Shown piece by piece: positions 7,983-14,161 of a stretch of DNA of 64,000 nt. Under the pieces are notes generated by a model. It had not been told where the DNA came from. It was given only the letters and a program-made list of their open reading frames with translations, and made no database searches. Numbering within the stretch: position 1 is the stretch's first letter; each line of letters starts with the position of its first letter. The position numbers and the translations under genes were made by a program. Origin of the DNA: a phage; assembly GCA_012112355.1 (NCBI GenBank), contig GCA_012112355.1_3028.1. The stretch is one strand, 5' to 3'.

Positions 7983-7990
7983 TATAAATA
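7983..7990 (+). promoter_or_regulatory. T4-type late promoter core TATAAATA upstream of gene 36
   Basis: Exact TATAAATA about 24 nt upstream of the gene 36 ATG at 8014. Confidence 0.5.
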
Positions 7991-8684: not shown

Positions 8685-11600
8685 ATGGCTACTTTAAAAC
8701 AAATACAATTTAAAAGAAGCAAAACCGCAGGTGCACGTCCTGCTGCTTCAGTATTAGCCGAAGGTGAATTGGCTATAAACTTAAAAGATAGAACAATTTT
8801 TACTAAAGATGATTCAGGAAATATCATCGATTTAAGCATTTCTACTGGTGGTAATATCAGTGGAAATATAACTCAAACTGGAGATTATTTACAGAACGGT
8901 ACATATAATCTCAATGGAAATCAGTTTGTTTATGCAGGAAAATATATTGAATTTTTACCTAAAACAGCTGGTAATGGTGCGTGGGCAAATCAACACCTAA
9001 ATAAAGCTCCTATCTTTACAGATTTAAGTTCAACTACTTCTGTTTCAGAATACCATCCGCTGATTAAACAACGCTATAAAGATGGAACTTTTTCTGCTGG
9101 TACATTAGTAAACGAAGGTAGTTTTAAATTCCATTATATTGATGAAACCGGGACTTCAAAATACTGGACTTTTAATCGAAACGGTAATTTCATCGTAGAT
9201 TCTGGTAGTATTGAAGTTCGTGCTGGTAATATTTCCGCTTCAGGCAATATTAACTCTGCTAATGGTATTATCACCGGTCCTGAAATTGTTACTAAAAATA
9301 TTAATTTCAGTACAAAAACATTTGTAGCTAATGCTAACATTGGATATGATTGGGTTTCTTTACCTACTTGGGTTTATAACCCACCGGCTGATGGTTCTGA
9401 TAATACTACTAACGGTTTAAACTATTTGCGTAAATTGCGTGCATCAAGTGCATCAAGTATTTTCCATGAAATTGCTGATTGTCGAAAAGGCAAGCCACAA
9501 GAAATTTCTTGGTGGACAGGTGTAGGCCCGGAATCTTTCCAATGGGCGTTTGATACCTCCGGTCGTATTACTGCAGGTAAATCTATTTCGGTAGGTCTTC
9601 CTGATAATGGTACAAATGGACGTTATCCTTTAGATTCTGCGATTTCTATAGGTATTGCAATTGGTGATAACGACACCGGTATTAAATGGGTCCGCGACGG
9701 TGTTATTGATTTCATGGCTAACGGTATTTCATCTGCTACTATTTTGAATAACGGTATTAACAGTACTAAAAAATTGATGGTCGGTTATAGTCGAGATTCC
9801 GGTTCTACTTGGGATTACCCAAATAACAACCAAGCAATGTTTACTGCGCGTACCGATGTTGATGGTAATAATAACGGCGATGGACAGACTCATATCGGTT
9901 ATAGCAGCAATGCCAAGATGTATCACTATTTCCGTGGTACAGGTCGTATGTCCGTTAATATGGGCGATGGACTTCTTGTTGAGCCTGGCATTTTGGATAT
10001 TAAAACTGGTTCAAATTCGTTAAATTTGCGTGCTGATGGTACCATAGCTTCTGTTCAAACGTTAAAACTTAATAATGGATTATATTTTAATGGTGATGGA
10101 ACTAATGCTTCTCTAGTTTTTAAAGCAGCTTCAGGTATTGATGGCACTAAGCAAATCATGTGGGAAGGCGGTACACGAGCAGGTCAGAATAAGAGTTATG
10201 TAACTGTTAAAGCATGGGGTAATTCATTTAACGCATCCGGCGATCGTAATCGTGAAACAGTTTTTGAAGTTAGTGACGGGCAAGGATATTATTTTTATTC
10301 ACAGCGTATGGCTCCAAGTGGCTCTGAAACTACTGGGCCTGTTGTAACCCAGTTCAATGGACAAGTTAATGCTAGAGGAAGTATTATTACTGACGGAAGT
10401 TTTAAAGTTAATGGATTAAGCACTTTAGTCGGTAATGTTACTATGTCTAACGGTTTGTTTGTCCAAGGTGGTTCTTCTATTACTGGACAAGTTAAAATTG
10501 GTGGAACAGCTGATGCATTAAGAATTTGGAATGCTGAATACGGGGCTATTTTCCGTCGTTCTGAAGCGGCATTGCATATTATCCCGACTCCTAAAGATGC
10601 TGGAGAATCAGGTGGAATAAGCAATCTCCGTCCATTAAGTATTAGTCTTAATAATGGTATGGTACAAATGCGCCATTCTGTCACGTTAGGCGATGATGGC
10701 GCTGGCGGTAATATGATTACTGTGGACAATGATAACAAACTTGTTGTTGTTACTAGTCATAGTCGTATTTCTCCTAATTACCGTATGCAGGTAGGACAAG
10801 CAGCTTATATTGATGCTGAATGTACTGACACCGTTCGCCCGGCCGGCGCAGGCTCTTTTGCTTCCCAAAATAATGAAAATGTCCGTGCTCCGTTCTATAT
10901 GAATATTAATAGAACTGATACTAGCACATATGTTCCTATTTTAAAACAGCGATATGTTCAAGGTAACAGCTGTTATTCGTTAGGCACTTTAATTAATGGT
11001 GGTAACTTTAGAGTTCATTATCATGAAGGTGGAGACGGAAGCTCAACAGGCGCAGTTATAAAAGATTTAGGCTGGGAATTTAACAAAAACGGTGATTTTT
11101 ACTCTCCTGGTAAATTAGGTGCTGGTGCGGTTCGTATTGGTACTGACGGTAATATCACGGGCGGTTCATTACCTAACTTTGCTAACTTGAACTTGACATT
11201 AGACCGTAAAGTCAATACCCGAATGGTTTCTTATTCAGGTACTGGCGGTTGGTATAAATTAGCCACTGTAACAATGCCACAATCCACTTCAACCGTCACA
11301 TTCGAAATTGCTGGTGGTAATGGATATAATGTCAACATCCCACACCAATGCGTTACTTCGAAAATCGTTTTAAGAACTTCGAACAATAACCCGAAAGGTA
11401 TTAACGCTGTTGTTTGGTCGATGGATACCGATCAGGGTATTAAGAATGTTGCAACGGTTAATACATCAGGCGATGTTTATGACATCTATGTAAACGTTGG
11501 TACTTATGCTCAGGCGTTAGCAGTTTCTTATTATGCTACTCCTAATGCTACCATTAATCAGATATTTGCAACGGACCAACCGGGTGCAACAGAAACTGCG

Positions 11601-12656
11601 GTTGAACTTCCTGAGACGGCTATTCAAGGACAGGTTGCTAGTGTTCTGAACAACTTGGCTCCTACCCCTAACGGTGTGAAGCGTTATGAAGCCGATTCTG
11701 AAATAGCTATTAATAGCCAAACCGGTATTCGTATCAGAAGCAATGCCGATAAAACTGGTTCTGTGGCTACAATGTTACGAAATGACGGTGGCAGTTTTTA
11801 TATTCTGTTTACAGATAAAAATGCCACCGATGGCGCAGCAACTGTTAATGGTGATTGGAATAGTAAACGTCCTTTCGCAATTAACTTAACAACCGGCGAA
11901 GTGATGATGAATAATGGCATAGCTGTTCGCAGCGCTGCTTTATTCTATAATAGCATAAACGTCAAAGATAATGGTTCTATTAACTTTGATAAATCAGGTG
12001 CTAACCCGAGAAATATGAGAATATTTCATGCTGGCGATGCTTCTCGCGGTAACCGTATTGAAATTGCCGATGAAACTAACTATATTGCTTACTTTGAAAA
12101 AACTCCAGGTGGAGCTAACCGCTTTGTAGTAAATAATGCTACTGTAGCTGGTATTAATCAAACAAATTCATTTGGTATTAATATCAATAACGCACTTGGT
12201 GGAAATAGTATAGCATTTGGTGATAGCGATACTGGTATTAAGCAAAATGGCGATGGATTATTAGACATATATGCGAACAGCGTACAAGTATTCCGTTTCC
12301 AAAACGGTGATTTGTACTCATATAAAAATATAAATGCTCCAAACGTTTATATTCGTTCTGATATTCGCTTAAAATCTAATTTCAAACCTATCGAAAATGC
12401 ACTTGATAAAGTTGAAAAACTCAATGGTGTCATTTATGATAAAGCTGAATACATCGGTGGAGAGGCAATTGAAACTGAAGCGGGTATTGTAGCTCAAACG
12501 TTACAAGACGTTTTACCAGAAGCCGTCCGTGAAACAGAAGACAGCAAGGGTAATAAAATACTCACTGTTTCTTCTCAAGCCCAGATTGCTCTTCTGGTTG
12601 AAGCTGTGAAAACGCTTTCTTCTCGTGTAAAAGAACTTGAATCTAAACTTATGTAA
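8685..12656 (+). CDS. 37: long tail fibre distal subunit gp37, T2/T6-like long form with a C-terminal intramolecular-chaperone-like domain
   Basis: 1323 aa; [46 protein letters not shown] N-terminus as in gp37; internal repeats; C-terminal tail contains SDIRLK...VKELESKLM. Confidence 0.9.
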   Translation: [1323 protein letters not shown]

Positions 12657-12657
12657 A

Positions 12658-12675
12658 AGAGGGCTTCGGCCCTCT
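12658..12675 (+). other. RNA stem-loop with UUCG tetraloop (agagggc-ttcg-gccctct) between genes 37 and 38
   Basis: Perfect inverted repeat in the 30-nt 37-38 intergenic spacer; no T-run, so more likely a stabilising or processing hairpin than a strong terminator. Confidence 0.45.
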
Positions 12676-12686
12676 AAGGATTTTTA

Positions 12687-13472
12687 ATGGCAATTGTAGG
12701 TGTTCCTGGCTGGATTGGTGAATCTGCCGTGAATGAAACTGGACAACGTTGGATGGATGCTGCAATGAGAGCAGTCCGTGTTTCAGTTCCCGGTTGGATG
12801 AGCTCAATGGCCGGACAATCTAAAGAAGTATATTATAGCATTGGTGCTAGTAATTCTTATAATAAAGATACATTAATAAACTGGATAAAAGCCCAAGGCA
12901 GTACTCCTGTTGTTATTACTATTACAGGAAATATTGTTTCTCGATCTACTGGTGTTCCATGCTTAGATTTTCCTAGCTCATTAACTAATGCATACGTGAC
13001 ACTTAATATCAATTCAGGAGTGCATGTTTGGGGCCGTGGCGGGAATGGCGGAAATAACTCTGCCGGTGGAGCAGGAGGAACTGCAATAAATAATGGAATT
13101 GGAACTAGATTGCGTATTAACAACAATGGTGTTATCGCAGGAGGCGGTGGCGGCGGTGGAGGCGGATATTATTCTCCTTTTTCACAAATGAAATTGACTT
13201 TTGGCGGTGGCGGCGGTCGTCCATTTGGTGCTGCTGGCGGGTCTGCTAATATGGAACAGGGCGCTACTGCTGGTACTATTTCTGCACCTGGTAAAGGGTC
13301 TGTCAATGGTATCTATAATGGCGGGAATGGCGGTGATGCTGGTGCCGCAGGTGGTAAATGTAATATTCGTGGGCAAGGATCAGAATATAACGGCGGCGCG
13401 GCCGGTAAAGCTGTTACTGGTAATGCTCCAACTTGGACTAAGGTTGGTACAATATATGGTTCAAGAGTATAA
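12687..13472 (+). CDS. 38: receptor-recognising tail fibre adhesin gp38 (T2-type, glycine-rich)
   Basis: 261 aa, MAIVGVPGWIGESAVNETGQRWMDAAM...; poly-Gly blocks (GGGGGGGGGYY, FGGGGGRPFGAAGG) separating variable segments, as in T2/K3/Ox2 gp38. Confidence 0.85.
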   Translation: MAIVGVPGWIGESAVNETGQRWMDAAMRAVRVSVPGWMSSMAGQSKEVYYSIGASNSYNKDTLINWIKAQGSTPVVITITGNIVSRSTGVPCLDFPSSLTNAYVTLNINSGVHVWGRGGNGGNNSAGGAGGTAINNGIGTRLRINNNGVIAGGGGGGGGGYYSPFSQMKLTFGGGGGRPFGAAGGSANMEQGATAGTISAPGKGSVNGIYNGGNGGDAGAAGGKCNIRGQGSEYNGGAAGKAVTGNAPTWTKVGTIYGSRV

Positions 13473-13504
13473 TTTTTGAATAAATATCCTTAAAAGGAGG
13501 GTCT

Positions 13505-14161
13505 ATGGCAGCACCTAGAATATCATTTTCGCCCTCTGATATTCTATTTGGTGTTCTAGATCGCTTGTTCAAAGATAACGCTACTGGGAAGGTTCTTGCT
13601 TCCCGGGTAGCTGTCGTAATTCTTTTATTTATGATGGCGATTGTTTGGTATAGGGGAGATAGTTTCTTTGAGTACTATAAGCAATCAAAGTATGAAACAT
13701 ACAGTGAAATTATTGAAAAGGAAAGAAATGCACGCTTTGAATCTGTCGCCCTGGAACAACTCCAGATAGTTCATATATCATCTGAGGCAGACTTTAGTGC
13801 GGTGTATTCTTTCCGCCCTAAAAACTTAAACTATTTTGTTGATATTATAGCATACGAAGGAAGATTACCTTCAACAATAACTGAAAAATCACTTGGAGGA
13901 TATCCTGTTGATAAAACTATGGATGAATATATAGTTCATTTAAATGGACGTCATTATTATTCTGACTCAAAATTTGCTTTTTTACCAACTAAAAAGCCTA
14001 CTCCCGAAATAAACTACATGTACAGTTGTCCATATTTTAATTTGGATAATATCTATGCTGGAACGATAACCATGTACTGGTATAGAAATGATCATATAAG
14101 TAATGACCGCCTTGAATCAATATGCGCTCAGGCGGCCAGAATATTAGGAAGGGCTAAATAA
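13505..14161 (+). CDS. t: holin t
   Basis: 218 aa as T4 T; MAAPRISFSPSDILFGVLDRLFKDNATGKVLASRVAVVILLFMMAIVWY with a single N-terminal TM segment and a large periplasmic domain. Confidence 0.9.
   Translation: MAAPRISFSPSDILFGVLDRLFKDNATGKVLASRVAVVILLFMMAIVWYRGDSFFEYYKQSKYETYSEIIEKERNARFESVALEQLQIVHISSEADFSAVYSFRPKNLNYFVDIIAYEGRLPSTITEKSLGGYPVDKTMDEYIVHLNGRHYYSDSKFAFLPTKKPTPEINYMYSCPYFNLDNIYAGTITMYWYRNDHISNDRLESICAQAARILGRAK

Follow-up and report, generated by a model that had tools for sequence, protein, structure and literature searches.

By its sequence, the gene at positions 12687–13472 of the window (the whole 64,000-nucleotide stretch of phage DNA analysed here), on the plus strand, is a gene 38 encoding a T2/T6-type long-tail-fibre tip adhesin of 261 amino acids, unrelated to the T4 gp38 chaperone, and I strongly favour the E. 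coli nucleoside channel Tsx as the receptor of this phage. The overall explanation that I propose, and consider very probable, is that the glycine runs of the protein are structural, that its hypervariable segments form a Tsx-type set, that such sets are exchanged as a block, and that the glycine-codon repeats in the DNA are mainly a by-product. The gene identification and the biology given by the first-pass annotation are correct; this picture of gp38 was already known, and nothing found here departs from it.

The open reading frame begins with ATG, and its coordinates are exactly those at which the first-pass annotation had placed a gp38 adhesin. The product scores above the curated cut-offs of both T2/T6-type gp38 family models, with Gp38_N (PF21721; 8.2e-18, 64.6 bits against a cut-off of 25) covering residues 1–42 and GP38 (PF05268; 5.5e-72, 242.6 bits, cut-off 25) covering residues 47–261. 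Sequence matches in the PDB were obtained with gp38 from phage S16 (6F45_D, 3.7e-49) and from phage PP01 (9V85, 1.3e-33), and at the nucleotide level the gene is 99.9% identical to those of Bas39, teqhal and teqsoen. These domain and structure matches, together with the position of the gene in the order g36-g37-g38-t, bear out the adhesin identity.

Gene 38 adjoins a gene 37 whose product combines a C-terminal intramolecular chaperone with an S16/T2-type tip. This gene (8685..12656, plus strand; 1323 residues) encodes the distal half-fibre, the tip of which would carry gp38; it was recognised by a Pfam Peptidase_S74 domain, the C-terminal intramolecular chaperone, at residues 1225–1282 (nt 12357–12530) and by a match of its C-terminal 155 residues to S16 gp37 (6F45_A, 6.3e-12). 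The end of g37 is separated from the start of g38 by 30 nt, and the T holin gene (t, 13505–14161) follows 32 nt downstream of g38. The adjacency of gp37 and gp38 is not universal, as Krischvirus phages carry gp38 elsewhere, with the cassette at 88% amino acid identity; that gp38 lies away from gp37 in Krischvirus is also stated in a 2026 preprint. The g37-g38-t block is itself a mosaic, in which the gp37 shaft resembles that of Solly between 11187 and about 12100 and the region from 12187 onward resembles Bas39/NR1, and no full-length match to the block was found in 50,697 phage records.

A T4-type late-promoter motif (TATAAATA, 7983..7990, plus strand), recognised from the motif and the ORF map, lies just upstream of g36 (8014), and a second one lies just upstream of g34, at 2913. 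The motif at 7983 likely drives g36-g37-g38, and the two motifs would fit a late operon for the tail fibres. Downstream of the g37 stop codon and ahead of the ribosome-binding site of g38, folding predicts a 7-bp GC-rich hairpin with a UUCG loop (12658..12675, plus strand) of −13.4 kcal/mol, which is not significantly more stable than shuffled sequences (z-score only −1.17); the region gives a terminator-like match, and a terminator is annotated there in phage NR1. Searches of the window for Rfam families and tRNAs returned no match.

The name gp38 is shared with a different protein, the T4-type "distal long tail fibre assembly catalyst", a chaperone not found in virions, and this is the product name given in the GenBank records of teqhal, teqsoen, RB18 and T6. 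The T4 protein has in common with the window gene its name and its place between g37 and t, but it is unrelated in sequence (BLASTP E = 19, on which the chaperone reading was rejected at the sequence level), has 183 residues, matches no gp38 adhesin Pfam family and is not a virion component. Moreover, T4 gp37 lacks the S74 chaperone and carries Collar/Phage_fiber tip domains, whereas the window gp37 has S74; the T4 record itself states that the gp38 of the T2 subfamily is unrelated and is an adhesin. The S16 homolog of gp38 has furthermore been seen bound to the gp37 tip (6F45). That the window gene encodes an assembly catalyst is therefore vanishingly improbable, and the label in GenBank has been transferred from T4 gp38, to which the gene is unrelated. 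As an adhesin, the window gp38 would sit at the fibre tip of the virion and be needed for adsorption, by analogy with this S16 complex and with T6, in which g38 amber mutants are adsorption-defective.

An AlphaFold2 model of gp38, generated from a 29-sequence alignment, has a mean pLDDT of 86.5, with values above 90 in most blocks from residue 47 on; it is poor only in the attachment domain (pLDDT 32–56), which normally packs against gp37. A Foldseek search of the PDB with this model returned 9V85 (target-normalised TM 0.86, RMSD 2.5 Å) and 6F45_D (TM 0.77; overall range 0.73–0.86), with E-values of about 1e-19 to 1e-20, and no further PDB chain matched, all others having E above 2. The predicted model thus contains a helical attachment domain (at low confidence), a beta-helix and a polyglycine-II sandwich, the last of which is described for S16 gp38 in the CASP13 account. 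The S16 (PDB 6F45) and E. coli O157 phage PP01 (PDB 9V85) proteins resemble the window gp38 in the three-domain fold, the polyglycine-II sandwich and the docking on gp37, but are only about 44% identical and differ in their hypervariable loops; both adhesins bind OmpC and not Tsx.

In the probable reading, gp38 is a monomer that acts as the adhesin at the end of the long tail fibre in a T6-like Tequatrovirus, anchored by an N-terminal domain of three helices that plugs into the tip of the gp37 trimer. As gp37 would fold with its own C-terminal S74 chaperone, a T4-style assembly role for gp38 should be superfluous. The runs of glycine would serve a structural purpose: as polyglycine-II helices they would build a "polyglycine sandwich" of three layers, at whose distal end the hypervariable loops are held.

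In order to map these elements, column entropies were calculated over 104 sequences, namely the query and 103 full-length cluster representatives from a search of 5.8 billion proteins; the homologs are the top 120 hits, and the sample is biased toward relatives of the query. All coordinates that follow are on the plus strand. The N-terminal attachment domain (residues 1–46, 12687..12824) contains W9, W22 and W37, present in 100, 99 and 58 of the 104 homologs respectively. These correspond to the three tryptophans of S16 gp38 that dock into gp37 pockets (CASP13 account of the S16 structure), and all three are present here, suggesting by analogy that the domain docks on the gp37 trimer tip. It is followed by the N-terminal part of the beta-helix domain (residues 47–114, 12825..13028), modelled as beta strands with pLDDT 93–97.

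In the C-terminal half, five conserved Gly blocks (GRMs) alternate with four variable segments (HVSs). GRM1 (WGRGGNGG, 13029..13052; mean entropy 0.40 bits) precedes HVS1 (residues 123–150, 13053..13136), which is only weakly variable (0.89 bits), its variability being confined to the first few residues while the remainder (INNGIGTRLRINNNG) is conserved. GRM2 (AGGGGGGGGG, 13137..13166; 0.51 bits) is predicted to form a long polyglycine-II helix equivalent to helix 3 of S16 gp38 (residues 151–158), and is followed by HVS2 (YYSPFSQMKLTF, residues 161–172, 13167..13202), a loop of T6/Tsx type and the most variable segment of the 104-sequence alignment (2.70 bits). GRM3 (GGGGGRPFG, 13203..13229; 0.23 bits), HVS3 (residues 182–211, 13230..13319; 1.90 bits), GRM4 (GGNGGDAGAAG, 13320..13352; 0.83 bits), HVS4 (GKCNIRGQGSEYN, 13353..13391; 2.17 bits) and GRM5 (GGAAGKAVTG, 13392..13421; 0.64 bits) complete the series, before conserved C-terminal strands (13422..13469; 0.88 bits, beta strands at residues 243–257) return to the beta-helix domain.

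Mean entropy over the 104 sequences is 0.54 bits for the five GRMs, compared with 1.72 bits for the four HVSs (Mann-Whitney p = 2.6e-9). The segmental variability between the Gly blocks that the first-pass annotation expected of a gp38 alignment is thus present in these sequences, and its statement that these segments define the receptor is upheld both by this pattern and by the receptor assignments described below. The entropy pattern reproduces a published model of GRMs and HVSs (Trojet 2011; Lutz 2025; CASP13 account of the S16 structure). Within a clade of 14 Tsx-type genes the differences are almost all synonymous, which indicates that the loops are under purifying selection as long as the receptor class stays the same.

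For the receptor itself, the closest comparison is with Bas39 (FriedrichMiescher), for which the BASEL supplementary table gives Tsx as the primary and the deep core of LPS as the terminal receptor. The window gp38 differs from that of Bas39 at a single residue, R86Q (nt 12943), which belongs to the beta-helix domain; the two proteins agree in every GRM and HVS. It is 99.6% identical at the amino acid level to gp38 of JK38, a phage assigned to Tsx by RB-TnSeq (2026 preprint). Bas39, teqhal, teqsoen and JK38 thus carry essentially the same allele, for which Tsx was identified by knockout plating in the case of Bas39. HVS2, HVS3 and HVS4 all fall in the cluster of the T6 type, with identities to T6 of 83, 77 and 85%, and an allele with the T6-type HVS2-HVS3-HVS4 set would be expected to bind Tsx.

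The gp38 of T6, the classical Tsx adhesin, also has 261 residues, the same plan of GRMs and HVSs and the same HVS2, HVS3 and HVS4 types, with about 80% nucleotide identity from codon 150 onward. It differs elsewhere, the attachment domain being 65% and the beta-helix domain 34% identical, with 58% nucleotide identity before codon 149. This low identity outside HVS2-4 places the Tsx cassette on a different scaffold than in T6.

It could be argued that the window phage uses another primary receptor, such as OmpA, instead of or besides Tsx. A few substitutions can switch gp38, PST and T6 differing by three residues and Q206L in RB68 turning an OmpF into an OmpW adhesin, and relative to Bas39 the window phage has both R86Q and a different gp37 mosaic (1323 residues, against 1260 in Bas39), either of which could in principle modulate host range. 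Against this, all four HVSs and all GRMs are those of Bas39, R86Q is a beta-helix substitution remote from the distal loops, and Tsx was assigned experimentally twice, independently, for the near-identical Bas39 and JK38 alleles. I consider a different primary receptor improbable, and Tsx the receptor to be expected.

The glycine runs listed by the first-pass annotation are present, AGGGGGGGGGYY at residues 151–162 and FGGGGGRP at residues 172–179. Glycine makes up 60 of the 261 residues (23%), and 47 of the 131 residues between positions 115 and 245 (36%). The near-identical DNA tracts that it had described are equally real: GGCGGTGGCGGCGGT occurs exactly twice, at 13143–13157 in GRM2 and at 13203–13217 in GRM3, with an 87% copy at 13152–13166, and the 17-mer it quoted matches the first copy at 17 and the second at 16 of 17 positions. 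The segment that separates the two main tracts is HVS2, the most variable part of the protein. A second exact pair of 15-mers, TGGCGGGAATGGCGG, is shared by GRM1 and GRM4 (13037 and 13319), and both pairs are in frame, with spacings of 60 and 282 nt. Synonymous codons were permuted 1000 times without altering the protein or the codon usage; 5.2% of the permutations produced one exact repeat of 15 nt or more, and none of the 1000 produced two pairs. The DNA repeats thus modestly exceed what the Gly-rich protein forces, and they may not be a pure by-product, since the two exact 15-mers outdo the codon permutation.

These repeats are not maintained in relatives. In the 14 closest, the longest exact word that GRM2 has in common with GRM3 measures 6 to 15 nt, and a length of 15 is reached only in the query, Bas39 and A2. 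Four-fold sites have a nucleotide diversity of 0.31 within GRM codons, compared with 0.16 in the rest of the gene. Beyond the requirement for GGN codons the DNA of the GRMs therefore shows no conservation, a pattern that speaks against selection for recombinational homology; I propose that the repeats are chiefly a by-product of encoding glycine runs.

The tracts might alternatively be viewed as a trinucleotide-repeat contingency locus, in which slippage varies the length of the glycine runs to tune adsorption. The GRM2 run does vary from 4 to 10 residues among the 104 homologs, and Tandem Repeats Finder (TRF) places 2.9 copies of a repeat of 9-nt period at 13140–13165. Yet the glycine codons are mixed (23 GGT, 18 GGC, 14 GGA and 5 GGG) without a long pure repeat, the GRM2 run is exactly 9 glycines in 54 of the 104 homologs and the GRM3 run 5 glycines in 78, and the run lengths are identical in all 14 clade members. 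As packed polyglycine-II helices the runs would also be structurally constrained in length. Because of the mixed codons, the mostly constant lengths and this packing, the contingency-locus reading was rejected as very improbable.

A more serious proposal is the modular-shuffling hypothesis of Tetart and Krisch, according to which the GRM-coding repeats are selected recombination hot spots for shuffling single HVS modules; the first-pass annotation had likewise stated that the repeats permit segment swapping. The DNA comparisons bearing on this were drawn from named GenBank phages (a related-locus search of IMG/VR gave only 6 loci when run with the single protein; run with the 29-sequence alignment it gave only 3, all distant and partial, as the degenerate poly-Gly pattern saturates the scan). 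Several crossovers do lie in or beside GRMs. Sf24 is 99–100% identical to the window gene over gene nt 1–206 and 526–786 but 83% between, and its 3′ crossover falls between 13211 and 13214, inside the GRM3 repeat. In PinkRuby and Solly, near-identity gives way to divergence between 13151 and 13192 (GRM2/HVS2), as located by inspection of mismatch positions and not by likelihood segmentation. In the T6 group identity climbs from 52–58% to 78–80% at codons 147–149, at the HVS1/GRM2 edge. In RB18, Kelasse, L003 and L007, 94–97% identity is regained at codons 237–240, which makes GRM5 a recurrent 3′ boundary of the specificity cassette. An engineered CM8×EV240 recombinant exchanged only "HVS2 onwards" (2026 preprint), and when the near-identical T6 and PST were crossed, there were recombinants that had exchanged HVS2 alone or HVS3 alone. 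The two 15-nt exact repeats above the codon-permutation expectation also speak for this proposal.

However, other breakpoints lie at codons 24, 41–48 (the linker between attachment and beta-helix domains), 69, 85 and 103. About 5 of 12 well-supported breakpoints are in or beside a GRM and roughly 7 of 12 outside, with the GRMs making up roughly 18–30% of the gene depending on the margin; under the strict penalty used for likelihood segmentation, most relatives at 91–99% identity gave no breakpoints. Breakpoints are not clearly enriched in the GRMs. Modules were also typed at 70% identity and compared by four-gamete quartets and combination counts. The attachment domain and the HVS set reassort almost freely (18–35 quartets, and 42 combinations observed for 49 expected at random), whereas no incompatible quartet was found among HVS2, HVS3 and HVS4, and HVS2 and HVS3 occur in 31 combinations, close to the minimum of 27 and far from the 74 of random association. 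By this typing, HVS2-4 travel as one block in nature. Consistent with this, none of 14 recombinants from an RB5×RB32/33 cross had a crossover between GRM1 and GRM5 (Trojet et al.). The lack of conservation of the exact repeats among close relatives and the higher synonymous diversity of the GRMs weigh against the hypothesis as well. An apparent two-piece match to Sf25, resembling a segment swap, was discarded, the record having fragmented g37, g38 and t genes that are probably sequence errors.

Selected hot spots for single modules are, in my judgement, doubtful. Of the segment-swapping claim, what stands is that some crossovers use GRM3, the HVS1/GRM2 edge and GRM5, and that an "HVS2 onwards" swap can be engineered; the reshuffling of single HVSs in nature does not stand, about half of the breakpoints fall outside the GRMs, and the exact repeats are not conserved even in the closest clade. 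The GRMs look like occasional, not dedicated, crossover points. As regards block exchange, the main routes to a new host range would be point changes in the HVS loops and homologous recombination between T-even phages that infect the same cell, in which the HVS block moves as a whole or as part of a larger piece. The Gly-codon repeats offer short patches of homology (6–15 nt) that sometimes serve as crossover points.

A further property of the repeats was seen in relatives. Yersinia phage vB_YepM_ZN18 (L004) carries a perfect 51-nt tandem duplication comprising HVS2 and five Gly codons, and Yersinia phage PYps47T (L032) a perfect 54-nt tandem duplication of HVS2. Each is flanked by Gly-codon homology of 14–15 nt that the 3′ end of GRM2 shares with the 5′ end of GRM3. 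Because each unit carries the variants of the lineage it belongs to, and 56 further positions distinguish the two genes, the duplications arose independently. A tblastn search with the PYps47T protein shows no other such allele in the 812 phage records that match gp38; an 87-nt junction query also reports unduplicated genes as "100% covered", in two overlapping pieces. Deletions exist too: P0011, a singleton, has a 75-nt in-frame deletion, and the P0087 lineage, seen in JGI, ENA, NCBI and Logan data, a 144-nt in-frame deletion and a gp38 of 212 residues, the junctions of both lying in GGTGG or GCTGGTGG words. Engineered deletions of single GRMs or HVSs in T6 were not viable. With two independent HVS2 duplications and two deletion alleles, the Gly-codon repeats demonstrably mediate in-frame rearrangements, presumably by occasional unequal exchange or slippage that duplicates or deletes an HVS between two GRMs. 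With its exact repeats spaced by 60 nt, the window allele offers a substrate for such rearrangements, the predicted duplication and deletion products being of 60 nt (13143/13203) and 51 nt (13152/13203); it has itself no HVS duplication or deletion.

The two phages with HVS2 duplications were both isolated on Yersinia pseudotuberculosis; a literature search on ZN18 found nothing. Of 128 strains of this species PYps47T lysed 52, a smaller number than the 78–87 lysed by PYps14T, PYps15T and PYps32T, relatives that lack the duplication. Duplications of the His boxes in T4 gp37 reportedly extend host range to this same species. The two cases are alike in that short conserved flanking motifs mediate the tandem duplication of an adhesin specificity segment, in a Y. 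pseudotuberculosis context, but the T4 duplications affect the gp37 tip and arose under laboratory selection, whereas those in gp38 are natural alleles and absent from the window. By extension, unequal exchange at the GRM2/GRM3 repeats (13143/13203) might act as an "accordion", recurrently making adaptive HVS2 duplications and reciprocal deletions as host-range variants, with the excess of exact 15-mers due to intragenic conversion between GRMs and not to chance; I regard this as unlikely. The independent duplications in two Yersinia-isolated phages are a small side observation that may merit attention.

These results leave the established picture of gp38 unchanged. They temper the widely repeated shuffling idea, in that the HVSs are inherited together and the DNA of the GRMs is not specially conserved. 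As the main host-range determinant of T2/T6-like phages, gp38 is a target for receptor prediction and for the engineering of therapeutic phages, and for the window the useful outcome is a confident Tsx call together with mapped limits of the specificity cassette, from GRM2 to GRM5.

The window (1-64000) is a segment of a Tequatrovirus genome, extending from g34 at least as far as the rIIA/topoisomerase/dda region, and phages GiZh and S1P5QW are ∼96–97% identical to it. No tRNA gene and no match to an Rfam family was found in the 64,000 nucleotides. The T4-type late-promoter motif TATAAATA occurs only five times in the window, where ten copies would be expected by chance; two of the five lie immediately upstream of g34 and g36.

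Within gene 38 (12687-13472, + strand), which encodes the long-tail-fibre tip adhesin gp38, the specificity domain (13029-13421) forms a GC island, at 51.7% compared to 35.0% for the window, because of its GGN codons. The ORFs that consequently overlap here, at 13201-13479 (+), 12857-13126 (-) and 13182-13376 (-), are spurious. Further upstream, six substitutions, all synonymous, are clustered in the 13 nucleotides at 12893-12905 (codons 69–73). They are common to A2, PinkRuby, Solly and Sf24, and absent from both the window allele and that of phage Bas39; the cluster resembles a very short patch of conversion or a multi-nucleotide event. A GC-rich hairpin of 7 bp with a UUCG tetraloop (12658-12675) separates the stop codon of g37 from the Shine-Dalgarno sequence of g38. 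The annotation of phage NR1 calls it a terminator, but its stability is no greater than that of shuffled sequence (z = -1.17).

Length variation in gp38 was found in both directions. Two natural short alleles carry in-frame deletions whose junctions fall within Gly-codon words. The shorter, of 212 amino acids (within L031:1501-2668, Logan contig SRR25052219), is missing most of the sequence from the first hypervariable segment (HVS1) through the third glycine-rich motif (GRM3), and represents a recurrent lineage, in part from Salmonella assemblies; 3' of it on the same contig is a second ORF, of 170 amino acids, that also possesses the Gp38_N attachment domain. The other, of 234 amino acids (L030:318-1022), lacks HVS2 and GRM3. 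Perfect tandem duplications of HVS2 were identified in the Yersinia phages vB_YepM_ZN18 (51 nt; MN716856, L004:4978-5064) and PYps47T (54 nt; MT515755, L032:760-880), the sole such alleles among 812 phage records with gp38. Each is flanked by GRM2/GRM3 Gly-codon homology, and the two are independent events. Y. pseudotuberculosis was the isolation host in both cases, and PYps47T, for which the PYps paper describes merely "an insertion of 15 aa", lyses fewer strains of this species than its relatives without the duplication.

The Tsx-type cassette of hypervariable segments carried by the window allele is also present in a second genus, in gp38 of the Krischvirus phages GoldenSnicker (L012:1486-2265; 88% amino-acid identity) and Cognac (L015:1486-2262). 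In both, the gene lies amid small hypothetical genes, distant from gp37. A 2026 preprint likewise describes this cassette in Krischvirus.

The GenBank records MN895435, MN895436, MH553563 and MH550421 still label T2/T6-type gp38 adhesins "distal long tail fiber assembly catalyst", a function that belongs to the unrelated gp38 of T4. In the record of Shigella phage Sf25 (MF327009), g37, g38 and the holin gene t are each fragmented, with alternative start codons, a pattern that points to errors of sequencing or assembly and not to a biological cause.

Gene 37 itself (8685-12656), encoding the 1323-residue distal half-fibre protein gp37, was matched over its full length by none of 50,697 phage records; the best hit covers 88% of it, with 89% identity. 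Between 11187 and ∼12100 the shaft is near-identical to that of phage Solly, whereas the sequence starting at 12187 and continuing across g38 and t is identical to Bas39/NR1. Gene 37 of the window looks like a recent recombinant, in which a different shaft would have been joined to a Bas39-type tip and adhesin.
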